Below the pieces are notes generated by a model that was given only the letters and a program-made list of their open reading frames with translations, was not told where the DNA came from and made no database searches. The position numbers and the translations under genes are program-made. A DNA stretch of 19,294 nucleotides, from positions 1 through 19,294 of the forward strand of contig JBDRNU010000001.1 in the NCBI GenBank assembly GCA_043810775.1, given 5' to 3'. Of this stretch, positions 683 to 19,294 are shown one piece after another (position 1 is the first letter of the stretch; each line of letters begins with the position of its first letter). The stretch comes from an archaeon. Its GTDB lineage: Archaea > Nanobdellota > Nanobdellia > Pacearchaeales > GW2011-AR1.

Positions 683-1054
683 TTAATAGGAAGTTTCTGC
701 GCGACTATTTAAGTGGTTTCTTAGGTATTCATCTGCTAATTTAGATGCTTCTATTACTTGCCCACTTGAAGCTCTTCGTGGAATTTGCTTAAGAAGTTGA
801 GCCATAACATAAGCTTTATCTTGTGACTCACGACCAAAAAAAAGAGGAACTCCTTTTATTCTGGAGCAAGAAGGTGCAATGTATCCCTTAGAAGACCAAC
901 GGCGCAAACTATCTTTAGAAACTCCTGTAAGATTAGCTAGAGTTTCTAAATCCACCCCTAGACCTATATCTAACTTATAGGGTGTCTTATTAGGGGGCTT
1001 AATTTCAAATTCACGTTCATCTAAAACTACTTTTTGAGTATTATTTGGAGTCAT
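683..1054 (-). CDS. MerR-like helix-turn-helix protein
   Basis: LETLANLTGVSKDSLRRWSSKGYIAP matches the MerR/excisionase-type HTH pattern. Confidence 0.65.
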   Translation of the reverse strand: MTPNNTQKVVLDEREFEIKPPNKTPYKLDIGLGVDLETLANLTGVSKDSLRRWSSKGYIAPSCSRIKGVPLFFGRESQDKAYVMAQLLKQIPRRASSGQVIEASKLADEYLRNHLNSRAETSY

Positions 1055-1105
1055 TTTGCTGGATATTTACTAAATAAAAGGAATATTAAGAGTTTTTAAA
1101 TATTA

Positions 1106-1387
1106 TTACTCTTTAGAAGACCATTTGGACAGAATAATTAGAGCAATTACAGCAATAAATGTAACTAAAACTGCTACTAAAAACTGAAATCCAATGCCTT
1201 TGCCCAGACCTAGCTTGTCAATAATAGTATTTACAGAAGCCTGAATTGGGTCTTTCCAGGACAAGGCAATTAAAAAGGCAAACGCTGCACCTATAGCAGT
1301 ACCTACCTGCTTTTTAAATTCTTTTCGAAGTTCAGCAGCTGTTTGAAGTGGACTTTTTCTTAGCTTTTTTTCTTGATTTTTTGGCAT
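1106..1387 (-). CDS. DUF5654-family small membrane protein
   Basis: TAIGAAFAFLIALSWKDPIQ plus a second TM helix, the pattern of this family as recalled. Confidence 0.7.
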   Translation of the reverse strand: MPKNQEKKLRKSPLQTAAELRKEFKKQVGTAIGAAFAFLIALSWKDPIQASVNTIIDKLGLGKGIGFQFLVAVLVTFIAVIALIILSKWSSKE

Positions 1388-1445
1388 TTTTTCAAATTTG
1401 ATATTAGCAGAAACTTTTAGTTTTTGCTTAAAACTTTCTGCAATA

Positions 1446-1754
1446 CTACCTTCTTTTTCTTTTCTTTTTTTCAGGAAATATCTTAGTATAAATGCTTAAG
1501 ATTATAAGAATTATTATAAACCAAAATAAAATACTTATAATAAAAGCAGCTATTACGCTTGAAGTAATTCCAAAAAATACCTGGCTTATTCCCAGCATAT
1601 CTGGAAAAAATTTACAGTAATTCCAGGAATAAATTGAGTGATCAAGAGAAACTACTGGTGCTGTTTGACAGGGAATTATTTTGAGAACATAACCTAAAAA
1701 TGAAAGTATAATTGAGCTAAAAAATGCGTAAATAGGAATCTCTTTTTTTATCAT
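1446..1754 (-). CDS. Hypothetical membrane protein
   Basis: 102 aa, two TM helices flanking a two-Cys loop, basic tail. Confidence 0.75.
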   Translation of the reverse strand: MIKKEIPIYAFFSSIILSFLGYVLKIIPCQTAPVVSLDHSIYSWNYCKFFPDMLGISQVFFGITSSVIAAFIISILFWFIIILIILSIYTKIFPEKKKRKRR

Positions 1755-1799
1755 AATATATTATTGCCTGGTATAATATTTAAATCTTTCCATAAAGAG

Positions 1800-1933
1800 T
1801 GTTTAGAAGAATTAAATATTTTATCGTCGGTAAAGGGGGTGTTTAGGGGTGTTTAAACAGCTGTTTAAAAGAAATTTTGCTGTTTAAAGGCTGTTTAAAG
1901 GCTGTTTGTTGGAGTAATTAGGATGTGTTGGAA
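1800..1933. repeat. Iteron-like TGTTT(AAA) array with an 18-bp palindrome
   Basis: GGGGTGTTTA x2 (1836-1855); TTTAAACAGCTGTTTAAA palindrome (1852-1869); GCTGTTTAAAG x2 plus a partial copy (1879-1907); TGTTGGA x2 (1907, 1926). Confidence 0.85.
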
Positions 1934-2013
1934 ATGAATATTATACTTAAAAAGTGTTAAATTTACTATTATTTTAAGATATTTTTTCGTCGATAAATAT
2001 GAAAAAAGAAACA

Positions 2014-2021
2014 TTTATAAA
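2014..2021 (+). promoter_or_regulatory. Archaeal TATA box for wHTH gene A
   Basis: TTTATAAA preceded by a purine-rich BRE-like tract, ending 22 nt before ATG 2043. Confidence 0.6.
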
Positions 2022-2042
2022 CATGTTTGGATGTTAAATGAT

Positions 2043-2666
2043 ATGTTGAAGTGGTTATTTGGTGGTAAAAAAGAGGTTGAAGAGATTAAGAATGATGTTA
2101 AAAAGAGTTTTCATACTATTAAAAATGATATGGACACTGTTTCTAACTGGATTAAACACTTAAACAGCAGCGATGAAAAGCTTGACTTTAAGATTTCTGA
2201 TATAAATGAACGTTTATCGTCGATAGAAGATGAGTTTCAAGGCATGAAAAACGCGCTTGCATTTTTAGAAGGTGGATTTTCTAAACGGCTGTTTAAACAG
2301 CGACAAACAGCTGTGCGTAAACAAACAGCTGTTGAAGGTGTTCAAATACCTATACAAACAGCTGTTCAAACAGGTGATAGTGTTGATTTGTCAGTGCTGT
2401 CAGTTATGGAAAGAGCACTAGTTTTCATACTTTTGAATACTGATATGAAATTGAGTTATGATGATCTGGCTGCAATGCTTGGAAAATCAAGAGCCACAAT
2501 AAGAGGGCAGATAAATACAATAAAACAGAAAAGTGAGGGATTGATTGAAGAGATTATGGAGTCAAATGGTAAAAAAAGACTTTATGTGCCAGAGGAAGTA
2601 AAGGAAAAATTGCTAAAAAAGGTAAAAGTGAGTGGTGGAAAGAATAATAGGAAGAGGGGTAAGTGA
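2043..2666 (+). CDS. Coiled-coil + QTAV-repeat linker + C-terminal winged-helix protein (wHTH-A)
   Basis: ORF track start is 2031, but the TATA spacing favours 2043. HTH: LSYDDLAAMLGKSRATIRGQINTIKQK followed by a beta-wing (NGKKRLYV). Confidence 0.85.
   Translation: MLKWLFGGKKEVEEIKNDVKKSFHTIKNDMDTVSNWIKHLNSSDEKLDFKISDINERLSSIEDEFQGMKNALAFLEGGFSKRLFKQRQTAVRKQTAVEGVQIPIQTAVQTGDSVDLSVLSVMERALVFILLNTDMKLSYDDLAAMLGKSRATIRGQINTIKQKSEGLIEEIMESNGKKRLYVPEEVKEKLLKKVKVSGGKNNRKRGK
2282..2374. repeat. Intragenic AAACAGCTGT repeat array
   Basis: GCTGTTTAAACAGC palindrome 2288-2301; ACAAACAGCTGT at 2303, 2321 and 2354. Confidence 0.85.
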
Positions 2667-3111
2667 GGGTATATTATATAGGTAAAAATAGGGATAAAAA
2701 CGTAAAAGTGAGATAAAATCAAGATAAAAGTTCGTTTAATTAGTATATTATTAATAAAATAAGGGCTAAAAGTGGAAAAGTGAGAGTTCGTTGGGGTGGG
2801 TTGAGGTATAAAAATAGAGGAAAAAGCAGGGAAATTAATCAAAGGGAAACAGGATAAGGTAAAAGTGAGTTTAATTGATGTTTAAACAGGTTAAAACCCA
2901 AAAGTAAGAAGTAAAAAAGCTATTAATCAAGTAAAAGAGAGGGAAAAAGTGAACTCAAATAGCCCAGAAGTGAGATTAAGAGAAAATAGCTAAAAATGGC
3001 AAATAAGGCCTTTCTAGGCCATATAAGGTGAGAATTCTTGAATTTAGTTAGCAGAGCATAAATTAGATAATCGTTATATCGAATATATATTAAATAATCT
3101 GGAAAAGTGAT
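2529..3111 (+). repeat. Dispersed (GT)AAAAGTGAG direct-repeat array
   Basis: Exact AAAAGTGAG at 2529, 2624, 2704, 2776, 2861; variants near 2659, 2768, 2900, 2945, 2967, 3025, 3103; all on one strand. Confidence 0.75.
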
Positions 3112-3121
3112 ATAATGGCTT

Positions 3122-3865
3122 TTAAAGCTCTCTAAGCTGCAAAATAGTGGATAAAGAGACTATTTTCTTAAGATCTGGTGAAATATGGAGAATTATACGC
3201 TTATTATTAAGTTTTTCCTTAATTATAGGTATACCTTTACGTTGAATTTTACCTATGTAGTCCCTAATTGAGCTTTCTGAGAGGCTTAAATGCTTAGAAA
3301 GTAGTGTGTAATCTACCTCTATAATCTGCTCGTCAAGCTGATAAAGTAAGGAAAATGTGGCCATTTCCTGGGGTGTTAGCCTCTTGATTTTTAGACGTAT
3401 TTCCTTCTTAAGCCCATCTAAAGATGAGAGAATTTCTGCAGCTTTATCTAGATGATCACGAGATTTTACTTGTATTTTAGGCTCTTCTAGGGGAGAGATA
3501 TTAGTGGAGGGTTGGGGGGTAAATTGGGGTGAAATTTGAGGTATTTCACTGTATTTGTCTGTCTGTTGGTTTGTCTGTCTGTCTGTTGGAACCCCTTCAT
3601 TTCCTGTGGAAATACCCTTATTTTGGCTTTCTAAGGCTTCTAATGACTGTTGATGTGTTGGAATATGTGTTGGAGTTGTTGGAATTGGGGAACTATGTGT
3701 TGGAGTTTTAATCTTAGCTACAAGCTCGCTAAGTATATCTGCAAGAAGGTGATTTTCTGAATTTAACTTAGAAATCTCTTGTTTAATTTCAGTTATTTCT
3801 GAGCCTAAATTAAAGATGTCTTCTTTAATTTTTTTGAAAGCCTCTTTTAGTTTATCTTCATCCAT
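3122..3865 (-). CDS. Coiled-coil + PTH/TDRQ-repeat linker + C-terminal winged-helix protein (wHTH-B)
   Basis: 247 aa; HTH VDYTLLSKHLSLSESSIRDYIGKIQRKG with wing NNKRIILHI; same architecture as wHTH-A. Confidence 0.88.
   Translation of the reverse strand: MDEDKLKEAFKKIKEDIFNLGSEITEIKQEISKLNSENHLLADILSELVAKIKTPTHSSPIPTTPTHIPTHQQSLEALESQNKGISTGNEGVPTDRQTNQQTDKYSEIPQISPQFTPQPSTNISPLEEPKIQVKSRDHLDKAAEILSSLDGLKKEIRLKIKRLTPQEMATFSLLYQLDEQIIEVDYTLLSKHLSLSESSIRDYIGKIQRKGIPIIKEKLNNKRIILHISPDLKKIVSLSTILQLREL
3554..3707. repeat. Intragenic TGTTGG(A) repeat array
   Basis: (TGTC)nTGTTGG x2 (3554-3590); ATGTGTTGGA at 3653, 3665, 3695; TATGTGTTGGAGTT identical at 3664 and 3694. Confidence 0.8.
3591..3612 (-). 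promoter_or_regulatory. Putative ORB (Orc1/Cdc6 origin recognition box) inside the wHTH-B CDS
   Basis: Minus strand reads TTTCCACAGGAAATGAAGGGGT: TTCC-N3-GGAA dyad plus G-string, the archaeal ORB layout. Confidence 0.6.
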
Positions 3866-3896
3866 TTTGGATTTAAACTTTTCAAATATTTAAGGA

Positions 3897-4163
3897 TTAG
3901 TGTAATTGCTTATATGCATCATAAGCTTTATTTGAGAGTTTCCAGCGAATTCTCCTAGAATAAAATACTCCTTTTGGATTTTTCTTGACTGATACTACTA
4001 GACCTTTATCTTTGAGATCAAGAAGAAGGGCCTTAATAAATTCCTCATCACGAGCTATTTCTCGAGCTATTTCAGCTGTAAATTTAAGATTAGGAAACTC
4101 ATGATATAGATAAGATAAAACCTGCTCTGATATTTTATCGCGTTTCTCATTTGATAGCCTCAT
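3897..4163 (-). CDS. Small winged-helix DNA-binding protein
   Basis: FTAEIAREIARDEEFIKALLLDLKDKGLV followed by a wing hairpin; TATA at 4185-4192. Confidence 0.8.
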   Translation of the reverse strand: MRLSNEKRDKISEQVLSYLYHEFPNLKFTAEIAREIARDEEFIKALLLDLKDKGLVVSVKKNPKGVFYSRRIRWKLSNKAYDAYKQLH

Positions 4164-4285
4164 GAAACTCTAATACCGAATAACTATATAAACATTAGCA
4201 AAAAACATATATACCTTTAATTCTAAAACATTATACTGATTTCTGAAAACCAAAAAAACCTTCTTTGACTACTTAGGTTTTTAGG

Positions 4286-6910
4286 ATGATCAGAAATTGG
4301 AGGACAATTTCAGACATGGCGATTAAATTAAAGCAAGCTAAACTGAGAACTAGGGAAGATCTAATTAGAGTTATGCATCCTCTAGTCAGGGAGTGGTTTT
4401 TCTCTAAATTTAAGGAATTTTCACAACCACAATTATATGGGGTAATGCCAATTCATGATAGAAGGAATATCTTGATTTCTGCACCAACTGGTGGAACTAA
4501 AACTCTGACTGCTTTCTTAAGTATAATTAATTATCTAGTAGAGTTTGCATTTAAAAATGAACTTGCAGATAAGGTTTATGCTGTATATGTTAGTCCTTTG
4601 AAAGCTTTGAGCAATGATATTTTTGTCAATTTGGAAAATCCTCTTAAAGAAATTCAGGAACTTGCAAAAGAAAAAGGAGTAATTATGCAAAAAATAAGGG
4701 TTGATTTGAGAACAGGAGACACAAGCACATCAAAAAGGTCAGCAATGCTGAAAAATCCCCCACACATACTAGTAACTACTCCTGAAACTCTAGCTATCGT
4801 GCTTAATTCTATAAAGTTTGTTGAAAAATTACAAGGAGTTGAGTTTATTATAGTAGATGAGATTCATGCCATGGCTAATAAGAGAGGGGTTCACCTAAGC
4901 CTTAGCCTGGAAAGACTATCTGAATTAAGCAAGATATATCCAGTGAGGATAGGATTGAGCGCTACAGTGGCCCCTTTGGAGGAAATTGCTAATTTCCTAG
5001 TGGGGAATGATGCAGAATGCGAGATAGCTGATATAAGATTTGATAAAAAACTAGATATAGAAGTTATTTCACCTGTGAAAGATCTGATAGAAACTGATGC
5101 ACTTGAGATGCGATCTGGATTATATGGAATGCTAGATAAGCTAATTGAAGAACATAAGACTACACTAATATTTACTAATACTAGGAGCGCTACTGAAAGA
5201 GTAATTCATAATTTGAAAGAAATGTATCCTAAAAAATATATTGAAAATATAGGCGCACACCACTCTTCACTAAGCAAAAAACATAGATTTGATATTGAAA
5301 ATAGACTTAGAAATGGCGAATTAAAAGTAGTAGTTACAAGTACATCGCTAGAATTGGGAATTGATATAGGATATATTGATTTAGTAATCTTATTATCTAG
5401 CCCAAAATCAACTGCAAGAGCTTTGCAAAGAATAGGGAGAGCAGGGCATAAACTTCATGAAACTGTGAAAGGAAGATTTATTGTTCTTGACAGAGATGAT
5501 TTGATTGAATCATCTATAATTTTAAAAGAGGCTATTGAGGGAAAAATAGATGAGGTTCAAATACCTAAAAACTGCTTAGATGTTTTATCACAACAGATTT
5601 ATGGGATGGCTATTTATAAGGTTTGGGACAGAGAAGAAATGTTTAGGCTAATTAAAAAAAGTTATAGTTATAAAGGATTGAATAAAGAAGATTTCCTATC
5701 AGTTATAAGCTACCTTGCTGGTGAATATGCACTAGAACATAGACATGTTTATGGTAAAATCTGGTATGATGAAGAAAGCGGAAAGATTGGGAAGAGGGGT
5801 AAACTTGCTAGGGTGATTTATATGACTAATATAGGAACTATACCTGAAGAATCATATATTAATGTTGAGATTGGGGTGGGGGAGAGGAGGGGCTCTAATG
5901 TAGGAAAAATAGATGAGGGTTTTCTTGAGAGGCTGAAGAGAGGGGATGTATTTGTTTTGGGGGGGGCAAAATACGAGTTTTTGTTTTCAAGAGGAATGAA
6001 GGCTTATGTAAATGCTTCAGTTCAAAGACCTCCGACTATACCCAGTTGGTTTTCTGAAATGCTTCCACTTAGTTTTGATGTGGGGATAGAGATTGGGAGA
6101 TTTAGAAGATTGGTTGAAGAGAAATTTAATAAAAAATTAGAAAAAGAAGAAATTTTAAGCTTTATTCAAGAATATGCATACTGCAAAGCAGGAGTTGCTA
6201 AAGATATTTATAATTATTTTTATCAACAGTATAAATATCTGGGAATACCTTCAGATAAGAAAATAATTATTGAAAATTACAAAGGTGAGAAAAATTACTA
6301 TATTTTCCATACCATGTATGGGAGAAGAGTTAATGATGCTTTCTCCAGAGCTATTGGATTTTTGGTTGGGAGGCTTGGGGGGAGAGATGTAGAAATAGGA
6401 ATAAGGGATAATGGCTTTTATCTTGCTGGTGAAAAGCTACAGGTTGAGAGAGCTATGAAACATTTGAATAGCAAGAATTTAATTGAGATTTTGAAGGAGG
6501 CTATTGACAGGACTGAGGTATTAAATAGGAGGTTTAGACACTGTGCTGGAAGAAGCCTGATGATTTTAAGAAACTATAAAGGAAGAACTAAAAGTGTAGG
6601 AAGGCAGCAGGTATCTAGTTATTTATTATTAAATGCTGTGAATAAAATAAGCCATGAATTTCCTATACTAAAAGAAGCAAGAAGAGAGGTTTTTGAAGAT
6701 TTGATGGATATTGAAAACTGTAAAAAGGTTTTAGACTGGATTTCTGAAGGAAAAACAAAAATAGAATACAAAACTACTAGCCTGCCTTCCCCTTTTAGCT
6801 TAAATATTGTAATGGAAGGCTATTCTGATTTAATTAGAATGGAAGATAGAATTGAATTTCTGAAAAGGATGCATAAAGCTATAAATGAAAAGATAGATAA
6901 GAAGAAGTAA
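4286..6910 (+). CDS. lhr: Lhr-core (Lhr-like) SF2 ATP-dependent helicase
   Basis: Motifs APTGGTKT, SPLKALSND, TTPETL, DEIH, GLSAT, HHSSL, SLELGIDIG, QRIGRAGH, NIGTIP; about 870 aa; alternative start ATG 4316 after GGAGG. Confidence 0.93.
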   Translation: MIRNWRTISDMAIKLKQAKLRTREDLIRVMHPLVREWFFSKFKEFSQPQLYGVMPIHDRRNILISAPTGGTKTLTAFLSIINYLVEFAFKNELADKVYAVYVSPLKALSNDIFVNLENPLKEIQELAKEKGVIMQKIRVDLRTGDTSTSKRSAMLKNPPHILVTTPETLAIVLNSIKFVEKLQGVEFIIVDEIHAMANKRGVHLSLSLERLSELSKIYPVRIGLSATVAPLEEIANFLVGNDAECEIADIRFDKKLDIEVISPVKDLIETDALEMRSGLYGMLDKLIEEHKTTLIFTNTRSATERVIHNLKEMYPKKYIENIGAHHSSLSKKHRFDIENRLRNGELKVVVTSTSLELGIDIGYIDLVILLSSPKSTARALQRIGRAGHKLHETVKGRFIVLDRDDLIESSIILKEAIEGKIDEVQIPKNCLDVLSQQIYGMAIYKVWDREEMFRLIKKSYSYKGLNKEDFLSVISYLAGEYALEHRHVYGKIWYDEESGKIGKRGKLARVIYMTNIGTIPEESYINVEIGVGERRGSNVGKIDEGFLERLKRGDVFVLGGAKYEFLFSRGMKAYVNASVQRPPTIPSWFSEMLPLSFDVGIEIGRFRRLVEEKFNKKLEKEEILSFIQEYAYCKAGVAKDIYNYFYQQYKYLGIPSDKKIIIENYKGEKNYYIFHTMYGRRVNDAFSRAIGFLVGRLGGRDVEIGIRDNGFYLAGEKLQVERAMKHLNSKNLIEILKEAIDRTEVLNRRFRHCAGRSLMILRNYKGRTKSVGRQQVSSYLLLNAVNKISHEFPILKEARREVFEDLMDIENCKKVLDWISEGKTKIEYKTTSLPSPFSLNIVMEGYSDLIRMEDRIEFLKRMHKAINEKIDKKK

Positions 6911-18821: not shown

Positions 18822-19082
18822 TTAAATCAAATCTTCTTCTGAAACAACTACAAAATCACCTATTGCTATAATTGCATTATAAGGTAATAACAATTCTTTA
18901 TCTTTAGTAATCTCAAGATTAAGGTTTTTAGTATAAGGGGTTTGATTTTTAACAGTAATATGAATAAGTTCACCTGTTCGAGTTTCAAATGTCACATCTT
19001 TTACTAAACCAAGTCTTTTACCTTCTTTTGTTACAACGAGCTTGCCTAAGATATCTTTGAAAGGCTTTTTATCAATTGTCAT
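18822..19082 (-). CDS. PRC-barrel domain protein (CdpB-like)
   Basis: ILGKLVVTKEGKRLGLVKDV.F....GEL and LLPYNAIIAIGDFVVV; TATA at 19104-19111. Confidence 0.88.
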   Translation of the reverse strand: MTIDKKPFKDILGKLVVTKEGKRLGLVKDVTFETRTGELIHITVKNQTPYTKNLNLEITKDKELLLPYNAIIAIGDFVVVSEEDLI

Positions 19083-19294
19083 AACAGACTCAGCTTTAAT
19101 TTATTTATAAAGTTTTCTATGTTGTAAATATCATATCAGGAAAAGCAAGCTTGAAGATATTTGAGGTATTATTAGAGTTTTTTAATATATTATACTAAAA
19201 TTTGATGATCCCTGCCCCCATTGTTTCTTATGGAAAGGTTTATAAAGAAAAATTTGATTTTCTTTTTTTATTTTTTATTTATAAATATTTATAT

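Follow-up and report, generated by a model that had tools for sequence, protein, structure and literature searches.

The wHTH-A locus and its repeated word

The DNA analysed here, called the window throughout, is a stretch of 19,294 nucleotides constituting one contig (C1) of the source assembly G000, which comprises 995,483 bp in 26 contigs at 33% GC. The host is a DPANN-type archaeon. This study concerns a short word, (SS)TGTTT(A/G)A with the complement AAACA(SS), which is repeated in two arrays, one upstream of and one within a gene for a protein of the winged helix-turn-helix (wHTH) type, named wHTH-A. The elements of the locus are the following.

1800–1910, plus strand: upstream array, seven co-oriented TGTTT cores and one inverted AAACA core, unit approximately GG[G/C]TGTTTAA
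1852–1869: perfect 18-bp palindrome TTTAAACAGCTGTTTAAA, in the middle of the upstream array, with no second copy in the 995-kb assembly
2009–2028, plus strand: putative wHTH-A promoter region, assigned from position and conservation; AAACA at 2009–2013, TATA-like TTTATAAA at 2014–2021, dyad AAACATGTTT at 2019–2028
2043–2666, plus strand: wHTH-A gene, 207 aa from ATG 2043
2282–2376, plus strand: intragenic array in the linker codons; palindrome GCTGTTTAAACAGC, three copies of ACAAACAGCTGT, CAAACAGGTG and one decayed unit (GTT CAA ATA CCT)
2879–2889: isolated copy TGTTTAAACAG in the 3' spacer, with TGTTTAAACA at 2879–2888

The cores of the upstream array lie at 1840, 1850, 1862, 1881, 1892 and 1903, at spacings of 10, 12, 19, 11 and 11 nt, with an additional core at 1800. 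Inside the gene, GCTGTTTAAACAGC (2288–2301) is a perfect 14-bp palindrome, likewise unique in the assembly, and the three identical copies of ACAAACAGCTGT at 2303, 2321 and 2354 each encode (x)Q-T-A-V via CAA ACA GCT GT. The cores from 1840 to 1903, both palindromes, the three identical copies and the spacer copy at 2879 had been described in an original prediction made from the letters of the window, and each was found where it had been placed. The centres of the two arrays are about 460 bp apart. The upstream array is situated 105–215 nt 5' of the TATA-like box, which in turn precedes ATG 2043 by 22–29 nt. The open reading frame (ORF) extends to ATG 2031; the true start is probably ATG 2043, because orthologs align from that methionine and the profile match begins there.

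The word is strongly concentrated. Within the window CTGTTTAAA has seven matches, all in 1852–2889 (shuffled sequences: 0.65 ± 0.78), and AAACAGCTGT has five, all in 1855–2365, with 0.04 expected from shuffles. Assembly-wide, 7 of the 18 matches of CTGTTTAAA, 5 of the 7 matches of AAACAGCTGT and 3 of the 4 matches of TGTTTAAACA belong to the wHTH-A locus. A 150-nt frame slid along all 26 contigs detected STGTTT clusters of eight at C1:1799–1902 and of six at C1:2289–2368, the next best cluster holding three. Chance resemblance in AT-rich DNA might be invoked, as TGTTT and AAACA are individually common 5-mers at 33% GC and STGTTT totals 1260 occurrences in the assembly. This explanation is already refuted by the comparative data, and its probability is close to nil: none of 200 shuffles reaches the observed counts (seven in the case of CTGTTTAAA), no other cluster exists in 995 kb, and the arrays are conserved across the order.

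Single copies elsewhere in the assembly do not exceed the estimate from base composition, so that there is no sign of a regulon. A regulon was considered and rejected, with neither a further cluster nor an enrichment elsewhere in the assembly. Counted genome-wide, as proposed with the original prediction, the word is not common and clusters in the assembly only at the wHTH-A locus, to which it is confined.

Codons of the linker across orthologs

Of 60 relatives within the order, 48 have one copy of wHTH-A, and so do 12 of 12 high-quality genomes when G000 is counted in; the identity is 41–61%. The ortholog analysis covers 47 loci, i.e., G000 and 46 relatives, with protein identities of 42–58%. 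G023 and G056, in which a contig end truncates the ortholog, enter none of the 47-locus counts, and L046, which contains N, was excluded from alignments A1 and A2. Four orthologs from sister orders extend the set to 51 loci where indicated. All orthologs keep the linker peptide KQ(L/V)FK...KQTAV..VQTxVQTxVQT. The codon figures refer to the 129 V/I-Q/E-T-x units in the 47 genes, with the same genes outside the linker as background.

In these units threonine is encoded by ACA in 118 of 129 cases (background 78/171, 46%) and glutamine by CAA in 122 of 124 (background 124/239). Valine is encoded by GTT or GTC in 122 of 126 cases and never by GTA (0/126), which accounts for 128 of 388 background valines (33%). 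In the long ORFs of G000, 56% of the threonine codons are ACT and 34% are ACA, and ACT never appears in VQT units. Invariant residues of the wHTH part show an ordinary synonymous spread; T188, for example, is encoded by ACA (16), ACT (11), ACC (2) and ACG (1) in 30 loci. Position x is occupied by Ala, Gly or Pro via GCT, GGT or CCT, and its codon has the form SST in 92 and SSN in 122 of the 129 units.

In the coding sequence the word recurs at a period of exactly 12 bp, and it is translated in two frames. Over the 51 loci, AAACASSTGT is translated as Q-T-x-V 116 times (47 loci) and as K-Q-[LV]-[FS] 37 times (31 loci). Swaps between Leu and Val in KQ(L/V)FK retain CTG/GTG, with CTG making up only 7% of leucine codons. 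Within the order, 273 of 401 genomes contain an 18-nt exact form, CAAACASSTGTYCAAACA, as do 69 of the 86 genomes of high quality, usually as one or two overlapping matches at a single place per genome; the reversed 18-mer gave none among the matches listed. In 15 of 15 cross-checkable genomes the match lies inside the wHTH-A ortholog, and in the five genomes of this set without a wHTH-A gene the word was likewise not found.

These comparisons show that the word is constrained at the nucleotide level across the order. Because it is kept in arrays and read in two frames, the view that the conserved amino acids of the linker are largely a translation of DNA sites is strongly supported. The apparent protein motif is best explained by dual coding, that is, by conserved DNA sites read in two frames. 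The original prediction had held that the QTAV repeats are shaped by DNA sites which also occur upstream, and the frozen codons and the two frames strongly support it. It had also pointed to variable codons as the outcome that would speak against it; QTAV is conserved in orthologs, but its codons are frozen.

Alternatively, VQTxVQT might be a functional linker motif in its own right, its codons resulting from preference together with repeat homogenisation (slippage or gene conversion), and the upstream look-alikes being occasional copies of the coding repeat. The codons GTT, CAA and ACA are in common use, all units of one genome may share a variant (GTC or ACG, for instance) in the manner of concerted evolution, and in one locus (L025, see below) 41 nt have been transferred between the coding sequence and the upstream region. 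The reading frames are moreover fixed, and CGT (Arg), which fits the word, is used at x in only 1 of 129 units; the peptide is thus not free, and some selection at the peptide level does remain, to judge from this codon pattern. However, codon preference does not account for ACA units in a genome that prefers ACT, nor for the absence of GTA, and homogenisation covers sameness within a genome but not equal codons over 47 genomes in which synonymous sites elsewhere are scrambled. The second frame, KQLF, with its rare CTG/GTG kept through L/V swaps, likewise speaks against this explanation, as do the predicted disorder of the linker peptide and a non-coding upstream array whose position, phase and sequence are maintained in 34 of the 47 loci. 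Altogether, we regard it as very improbable.

The array upstream of the gene

The intragenic array is found in all 47 loci. At least three co-oriented TGTTT cores at -330..-40 relative to the start occur in 34 of them, which therefore carry both arrays, compared with 2 of 47 in a control region of 290 nt after the stop codon. Among the 13 array-negative loci, L023 is cut by a contig end and provides only about 75 nt of upstream sequence. By core density, the upstream array is located at -210..-120, mostly in plus orientation, and the coding array at +225..+330, mostly in the opposite orientation and preceded by one or two plus units. Upstream spacings peak at 10 nt (37 cases), 12 nt (22) and 13 nt (13) with echoes at 20–21 and 30–31 nt, in good agreement with the spacing of about one helical turn noticed in the window originally. 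The TGTTTAAACAGCTGTTT core of the 18-bp palindrome is found again upstream in most orthologs. The spacer copy at 2879 is probably outside the conserved system: an equivalent word within 450 nt past the stop was detected in 1 of the 47 loci, namely in G000 only.

In most orthologs the ATG is preceded by a TTTA[AT]A box, positioned at -27 or -29. The upstream array lies 5' of this conserved TATA box and, consequently, outside the mRNA. Closer to the gene, a TGTTT/AAACA core falls within -32..-1 in 19 of the 47 loci, a count for which the AT-rich composition of promoters confounds the expectation. Most orthologs start with Met-Phe (ATG TTT; 2043–2048 in the window), so that a TGTTT core overlaps the start codon; core density peaks at 3.7 per 100 nt in the bin 0..+14, which may be a part of the site set or merely reflect a conserved N-terminus.

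Locus L025 contains a 41-nt exact direct repeat, once in the upstream array (-125..-85) and once in the linker codons (+242..+283), which includes bases outside the canonical word. The repeat points to recent copying between the two arrays and shows that sequence can pass between them.

The palindromic words could also act in the RNA, as mRNA hairpins for the control of translation or stability. Along this line, the G000 linker RNA (2270–2390) folds at -35.9 kcal/mol (z = -3.08; 1 of 200 shuffles as good), and adjacent units have complementary centres in 34 of 74 cases. The remaining 40 of 74 are non-complementary, e.g., GGT-GGT runs, and RNAalifold on 46 orthologs yields -0.5 kcal/mol with six pairs and one compensatory change, which is essentially no consensus structure. 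The same word is conserved 5' of the TATA box, beyond the transcript. Rfam provides no match; a scan of 1400–4300 returned only a sub-threshold snoRNA-like match at 1593–1663 (25.4 bits, gathering score 39), which was rejected. An RNA constraint as explanation of the word is, in our opinion, highly improbable.

A further type of conserved element, GTGCACTAAGGTTAGCTTAGT, was seen by eye about 250–330 nt upstream of the ortholog in many relatives (L002, L008, L014, L016, L017, L019, L021, L022, L027, L032–L034, and L037). It is absent from the G000 window, and a quick pattern constructed for it matched nothing.

The wHTH-A protein and its neighbourhood

wHTH-A consists of a long N-terminal helix, a disordered linker, a winged helix and a C-terminal helix. 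An AlphaFold2 model based on the alignment of 46 orthologs has a mean predicted local distance difference test (pLDDT) score of 77.7 and places a helix at residues 3–78, the wHTH at 121–181 and the C-terminal helix at 184–206. The secondary structure from the wHTH onwards is H121–132, H139–146, H150–163, E169–172, E178–181, and H184–206. The score drops below 50 at residues 80–101 and 107–111, which coincides with the word-coded linker; the linker peptide is accordingly predicted to be disordered. Despite this modelled disorder, the linker is among the best-conserved parts of the protein, with many invariant or near-invariant alignment columns.

The top Foldseek match of wHTH-A is 6cmv, the Lrs14-like protein AbfR2 of Sulfolobus (E 1e-4, template modelling score relative to the target 0.52–0.53, 28–30% identity), followed by MarR-type proteins. 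A profile of the 46 orthologs searched against the PDB sequences gave a weak match to the same entry (E 0.0066). No Pfam or NCBIfam model scores above its cut-off on wHTH-A; NCBIfam Sta1 reaches 19.9 bits against a cut-off of 80.

Two more winged-helix genes follow downstream in the window.

3122–3865, minus strand: wHTH-B, convergent paralog with coiled coil, repeat-coded linker and wHTH
3897–4163, minus strand: 88-aa winged-helix gene, third member of the module, HTH_69 match below cut-off

In 46 of 47 loci wHTH-B is convergent to wHTH-A; the 88-aa gene is present in at least 35 of 47, a count limited by locus extent. By gene order across the loci, wHTH-A, wHTH-B and the 88-aa gene are a conserved three-gene winged-helix module. 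wHTH-A opens the module, and the gene upstream of it differs between loci; the upstream array thus goes with wHTH-A and not with its neighbour.

Five relatives have large contigs, and in all five the single cdc6 gene is located 2.4–15 kb downstream in the same orientation. In G000, cdc6 is found at the end of another contig, C17. The end of C1 (window 19050–19294) and C17 (35300–35603) both carry a similar TTTCTTATGGAA(A/G) word, which at the C1 end has a G/C-string beside it, and cdc6 points away from the C17 end. Speculatively, C1 and C17 may be neighbours across the replication origin; the distance between wHTH-A and cdc6 would then be about 17 kb.

Candidate binders and the effect of binding

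We propose that the word is a protein-binding DNA site which selection keeps in two arrays. The first would be the phased, mostly co-oriented array 120–210 nt 5' of the wHTH-A start. The second would be the array in the gene, where the disordered linker is encoded by five to seven copies, read as KQ(L/V)FK in the one frame and, in the other, as QTxV or VQTx. The binder would most likely be wHTH-A itself, an Lrs14/AbfR2-like winged helix with an added N-terminal helix of 78 residues. wHTH-A is favoured because the word accompanies its gene in every ortholog, including those of the sister orders. Bound arrays might repress wHTH-A, either by a roadblock in the coding region or, where both arrays exist, by a loop enclosing the promoter; alternatively, they might form a fixed nucleoprotein complex at one place of the chromosome near the replication origin. 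Protein binding, wHTH-A as the binder and the effect of binding are what we infer from these patterns. That the arrays are sites for protein binding at the DNA level is, taken by itself, very probable. For the statement as a whole, including self-binding by wHTH-A, the sequence evidence tips our judgement only somewhat in its favour.

A number of observations weigh against this explanation. Related genomes are not independent, and Fisher p-values are therefore overstated; the within-gene control is the stronger argument and answers the point, because the winged-helix codons of the same genes vary normally. The 13 loci that have an intragenic array without an upstream one imply that looping cannot be the general mechanism, and the sister-order orthologs have three to four degenerate intragenic copies and no upstream array. 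Autoregulation or looping between arrays, the second part of the original prediction, can thus not hold universally in the form given there, and the restriction of the 2879 spacer copy to G000 also weighs against a simple looping autoregulator. The original prediction had looked to covariation of upstream and intragenic motifs over orthologs, and here it was not borne out: variants of the word show no significant covariation between the two arrays (2/8 vs 1/25, Fisher p = 0.14). Similarly, the longest word common to the upstream region and the coding sequence has a median of 13 nt, no better than the control of 12 nt for the downstream region and the coding sequence; L025 alone stands out with its 41 nt. 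The constraint on the peptide at position x and the better-than-shuffled fold of the G000 linker RNA, both described above, belong here as well. As to the binder, it is linkage by itself that points to wHTH-A. Finally, there is a functional circularity in a regulator whose own gene is its only clustered target, a hint that the role is a different one or that something else binds. One candidate for such a role is a nucleoprotein complex fixed close to the origin, in which wHTH-B and the module's other arrays might take part.

Another binder would leave the sites real and change their meaning. Candidates are wHTH-B, the 88-aa winged-helix protein, Orc1/Cdc6 or a chromatin protein, and the arrays could be an origin-tied cis element, centromere-like or origin-accessory, that the wHTH-A gene merely hosts. 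Several features are in line with this: the single cdc6 downstream in all five relatives with large contigs, the conservation of three winged-helix genes as a module, and the ORB-like box (ORB, origin recognition box) within the coding sequence of wHTH-B. At least two further codon-frozen words in wHTH-A recur in its flanks, so that several binders are likely, and each genome has the TGTTT word at a single place, which would be expected if it were a structural site and not a regulon operator. On the other side, the word accompanies wHTH-A in every ortholog examined, sister orders included, and misses the ORB-type pattern. Neither a ParB N-terminal domain nor a ParA/SegA-type partner was seen in general family scans, which included no search aimed at ParA. 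That cdc6 lies on another contig in G000 also counts against this view. Taken as a whole, we judge it to be unlikely.

A more far-reaching version takes the intragenic array as the primary element. It would be a cis-site occurring once per genome near the origin, nucleating a complex of wHTH-A and wHTH-B, both coiled-coil winged-helix proteins, for chromosome organisation, segregation or replication control, and the linker would exist mainly to keep the site linked to the gene of its binder. The module would then be a dense stack of translated DNA signals, the other frozen words and the ORB-like box of wHTH-B included. This version strikes us as rather unlikely; if true, it would provide an archaeal counterpart of parS-in-parB in DPANN.

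Comparison with known systems

Our literature searches, judged from titles and the starts of abstracts, found nothing in print on the motif or on the wHTH-A family. Protein-binding arrays written into coding sequence are in themselves of a kind already known.

The closest structural relatives form the Lrs14 family of the Sulfolobales (Lrs14, AbfR1/AbfR2, Sto12a), whose features were taken for comparison from passages of a 2024 review (PMC11841832). There, Lrs14 proteins are small wHTH dimers of about 14 kDa that dimerise via a C-terminal coiled coil (antiparallel H4), bind cooperatively in several complexes, including to their own promoter DNA, with looping proposed, and are described as largely non-sequence-specific (PMC11841832). 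In its model, wHTH-A shares the order H1-H2-H3-S1-S2-H4 and the long C-terminal helix. In contrast, it has 207–211 aa, with the extra 78-residue N-terminal helix and a disordered linker of 40 residues, it is accompanied by a conserved, defined word, and it belongs to a DPANN lineage instead of the Sulfolobales.

Auxiliary operators in coding sequences that act by looping are represented by lacO2 in lacZ and galOI in galE. As in these systems, one word occurs upstream of the transcribed gene and several hundred bp inside it, bracketing the promoter. The present case differs by its arrays of five to eight copies, by their location in the regulator's own gene, by a conserved two-frame peptide that they dictate, and by the persistence of the intragenic array without an upstream partner in 13 of 47 loci.

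A palindromic site for an HTH protein inside that protein's gene, close to the origin, is known from parS in parB/spo0J. Possibly comparable are the dyad words in the wHTH-A gene and the confinement of the word to a locus 2.4–15 kb from cdc6 in the five relatives (in G000, cdc6 lies on the other contig). Unlike ParB, wHTH-A has no ParB N-terminal domain according to Pfam, and HTH_ParB (18.0 bits, cut-off 22.6) and parB_part TIGR00180 (17.7, cut-off 58.45) remain below threshold; short-repeat arrays, moreover, stand in place of one 16-bp site. No ParA-type ATPase was found among the seven proteins of 683–6910 scanned against Pfam, the other ORFs of the window having been read as translations with no search aimed at ParA.

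Iteron arrays are bound by winged-helix initiators, and the lambda origin lies inside gene O. Shared with them are direct repeats phased near one helical turn, some of them in the coding sequence of a DNA-binding protein. However, no Rep or O homology is seen in Pfam or NCBIfam, the structural neighbours of wHTH-A being Lrs14 and MarR, and the element is chromosomal, vertically inherited, single-copy across the order and not adjacent to cdc6.

Archaeal ORB and mini-ORB elements are defined by a dyad TTCCA..GGAAA followed by a G-string. The wHTH-A locus resembles them in being origin-linked and in the ORB-like box carried by the wHTH-B coding sequence. The TGTTT word fails the ORB-type pattern built from this consensus. 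The pattern TTCCA-N1-3-GGAAA-N2-6-GGGG has its sole match in the assembly at C1:3592 (minus strand) in wHTH-B and none in the TGTTT arrays, and an ORB identity of the word was rejected on this basis. A further precedent for the word is the forkhead-type site TGTTTAC.

Over hundreds of genomes, the linker offers an example of dual coding in nature that is unusually clean. It cautions those who annotate genomes or predict structures that a conserved disordered linker need not mean protein function. For the biology of DPANN archaea, where genetics is not available, it draws attention to a conserved module of three winged-helix genes next to the replication origin. A defined word of 10–12 nt and two arrays are directly testable in vitro with recombinant protein.

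Further repeated words in the module

A second word, TT(A/T)TCGTCG(A/G)TA, is common to the promoter region and the coding sequence. In the window its copies occur at 1820–1832, 1983–1995 and 2213–2225, i.e., 5' of the array, just 5' of the TATA box, and in the gene, where it is read as L-S-S (TTA TCG TCG). At the two serine columns of the orthologs, TCG accounts for 24 of 27 and for 18 of 21 cases, with a background of 14%. Twelve loci have the pattern YCGWCGR at -60..-31, and 26 of the 47 have it at +150..+209.

The third word, AAAAGTGAG, is strictly co-oriented and is found in the window at 2529–2537, 2624–2632, 2704, 2776 and 2861, and on to about 3110. Two of its copies belong to the gene, with the frozen codons K-S-E (AGT GAG) and K-V (GTG in 22 of 25 cases, background 19%), and it is repeated across the purine-rich spacer of 455 nt between the convergent genes. 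The assembly contains 19 copies, five of which are in 1700–3200, and in the 47 loci the word appears on the plus strand only. The stop codon of many orthologs sits within one AAAAGTGAG unit.

The ORB-like box of wHTH-B, TTCCACAGGAAATGAAGGGG, spans 3592–3611 on the minus strand and encodes I-S-T-G-N-E-G. In all 10 orthologs displayed it is followed by a (CAGA)n tract encoding TDRQ repeats. The window also contains TCCAACACAT-type repeats that encode TPTH.

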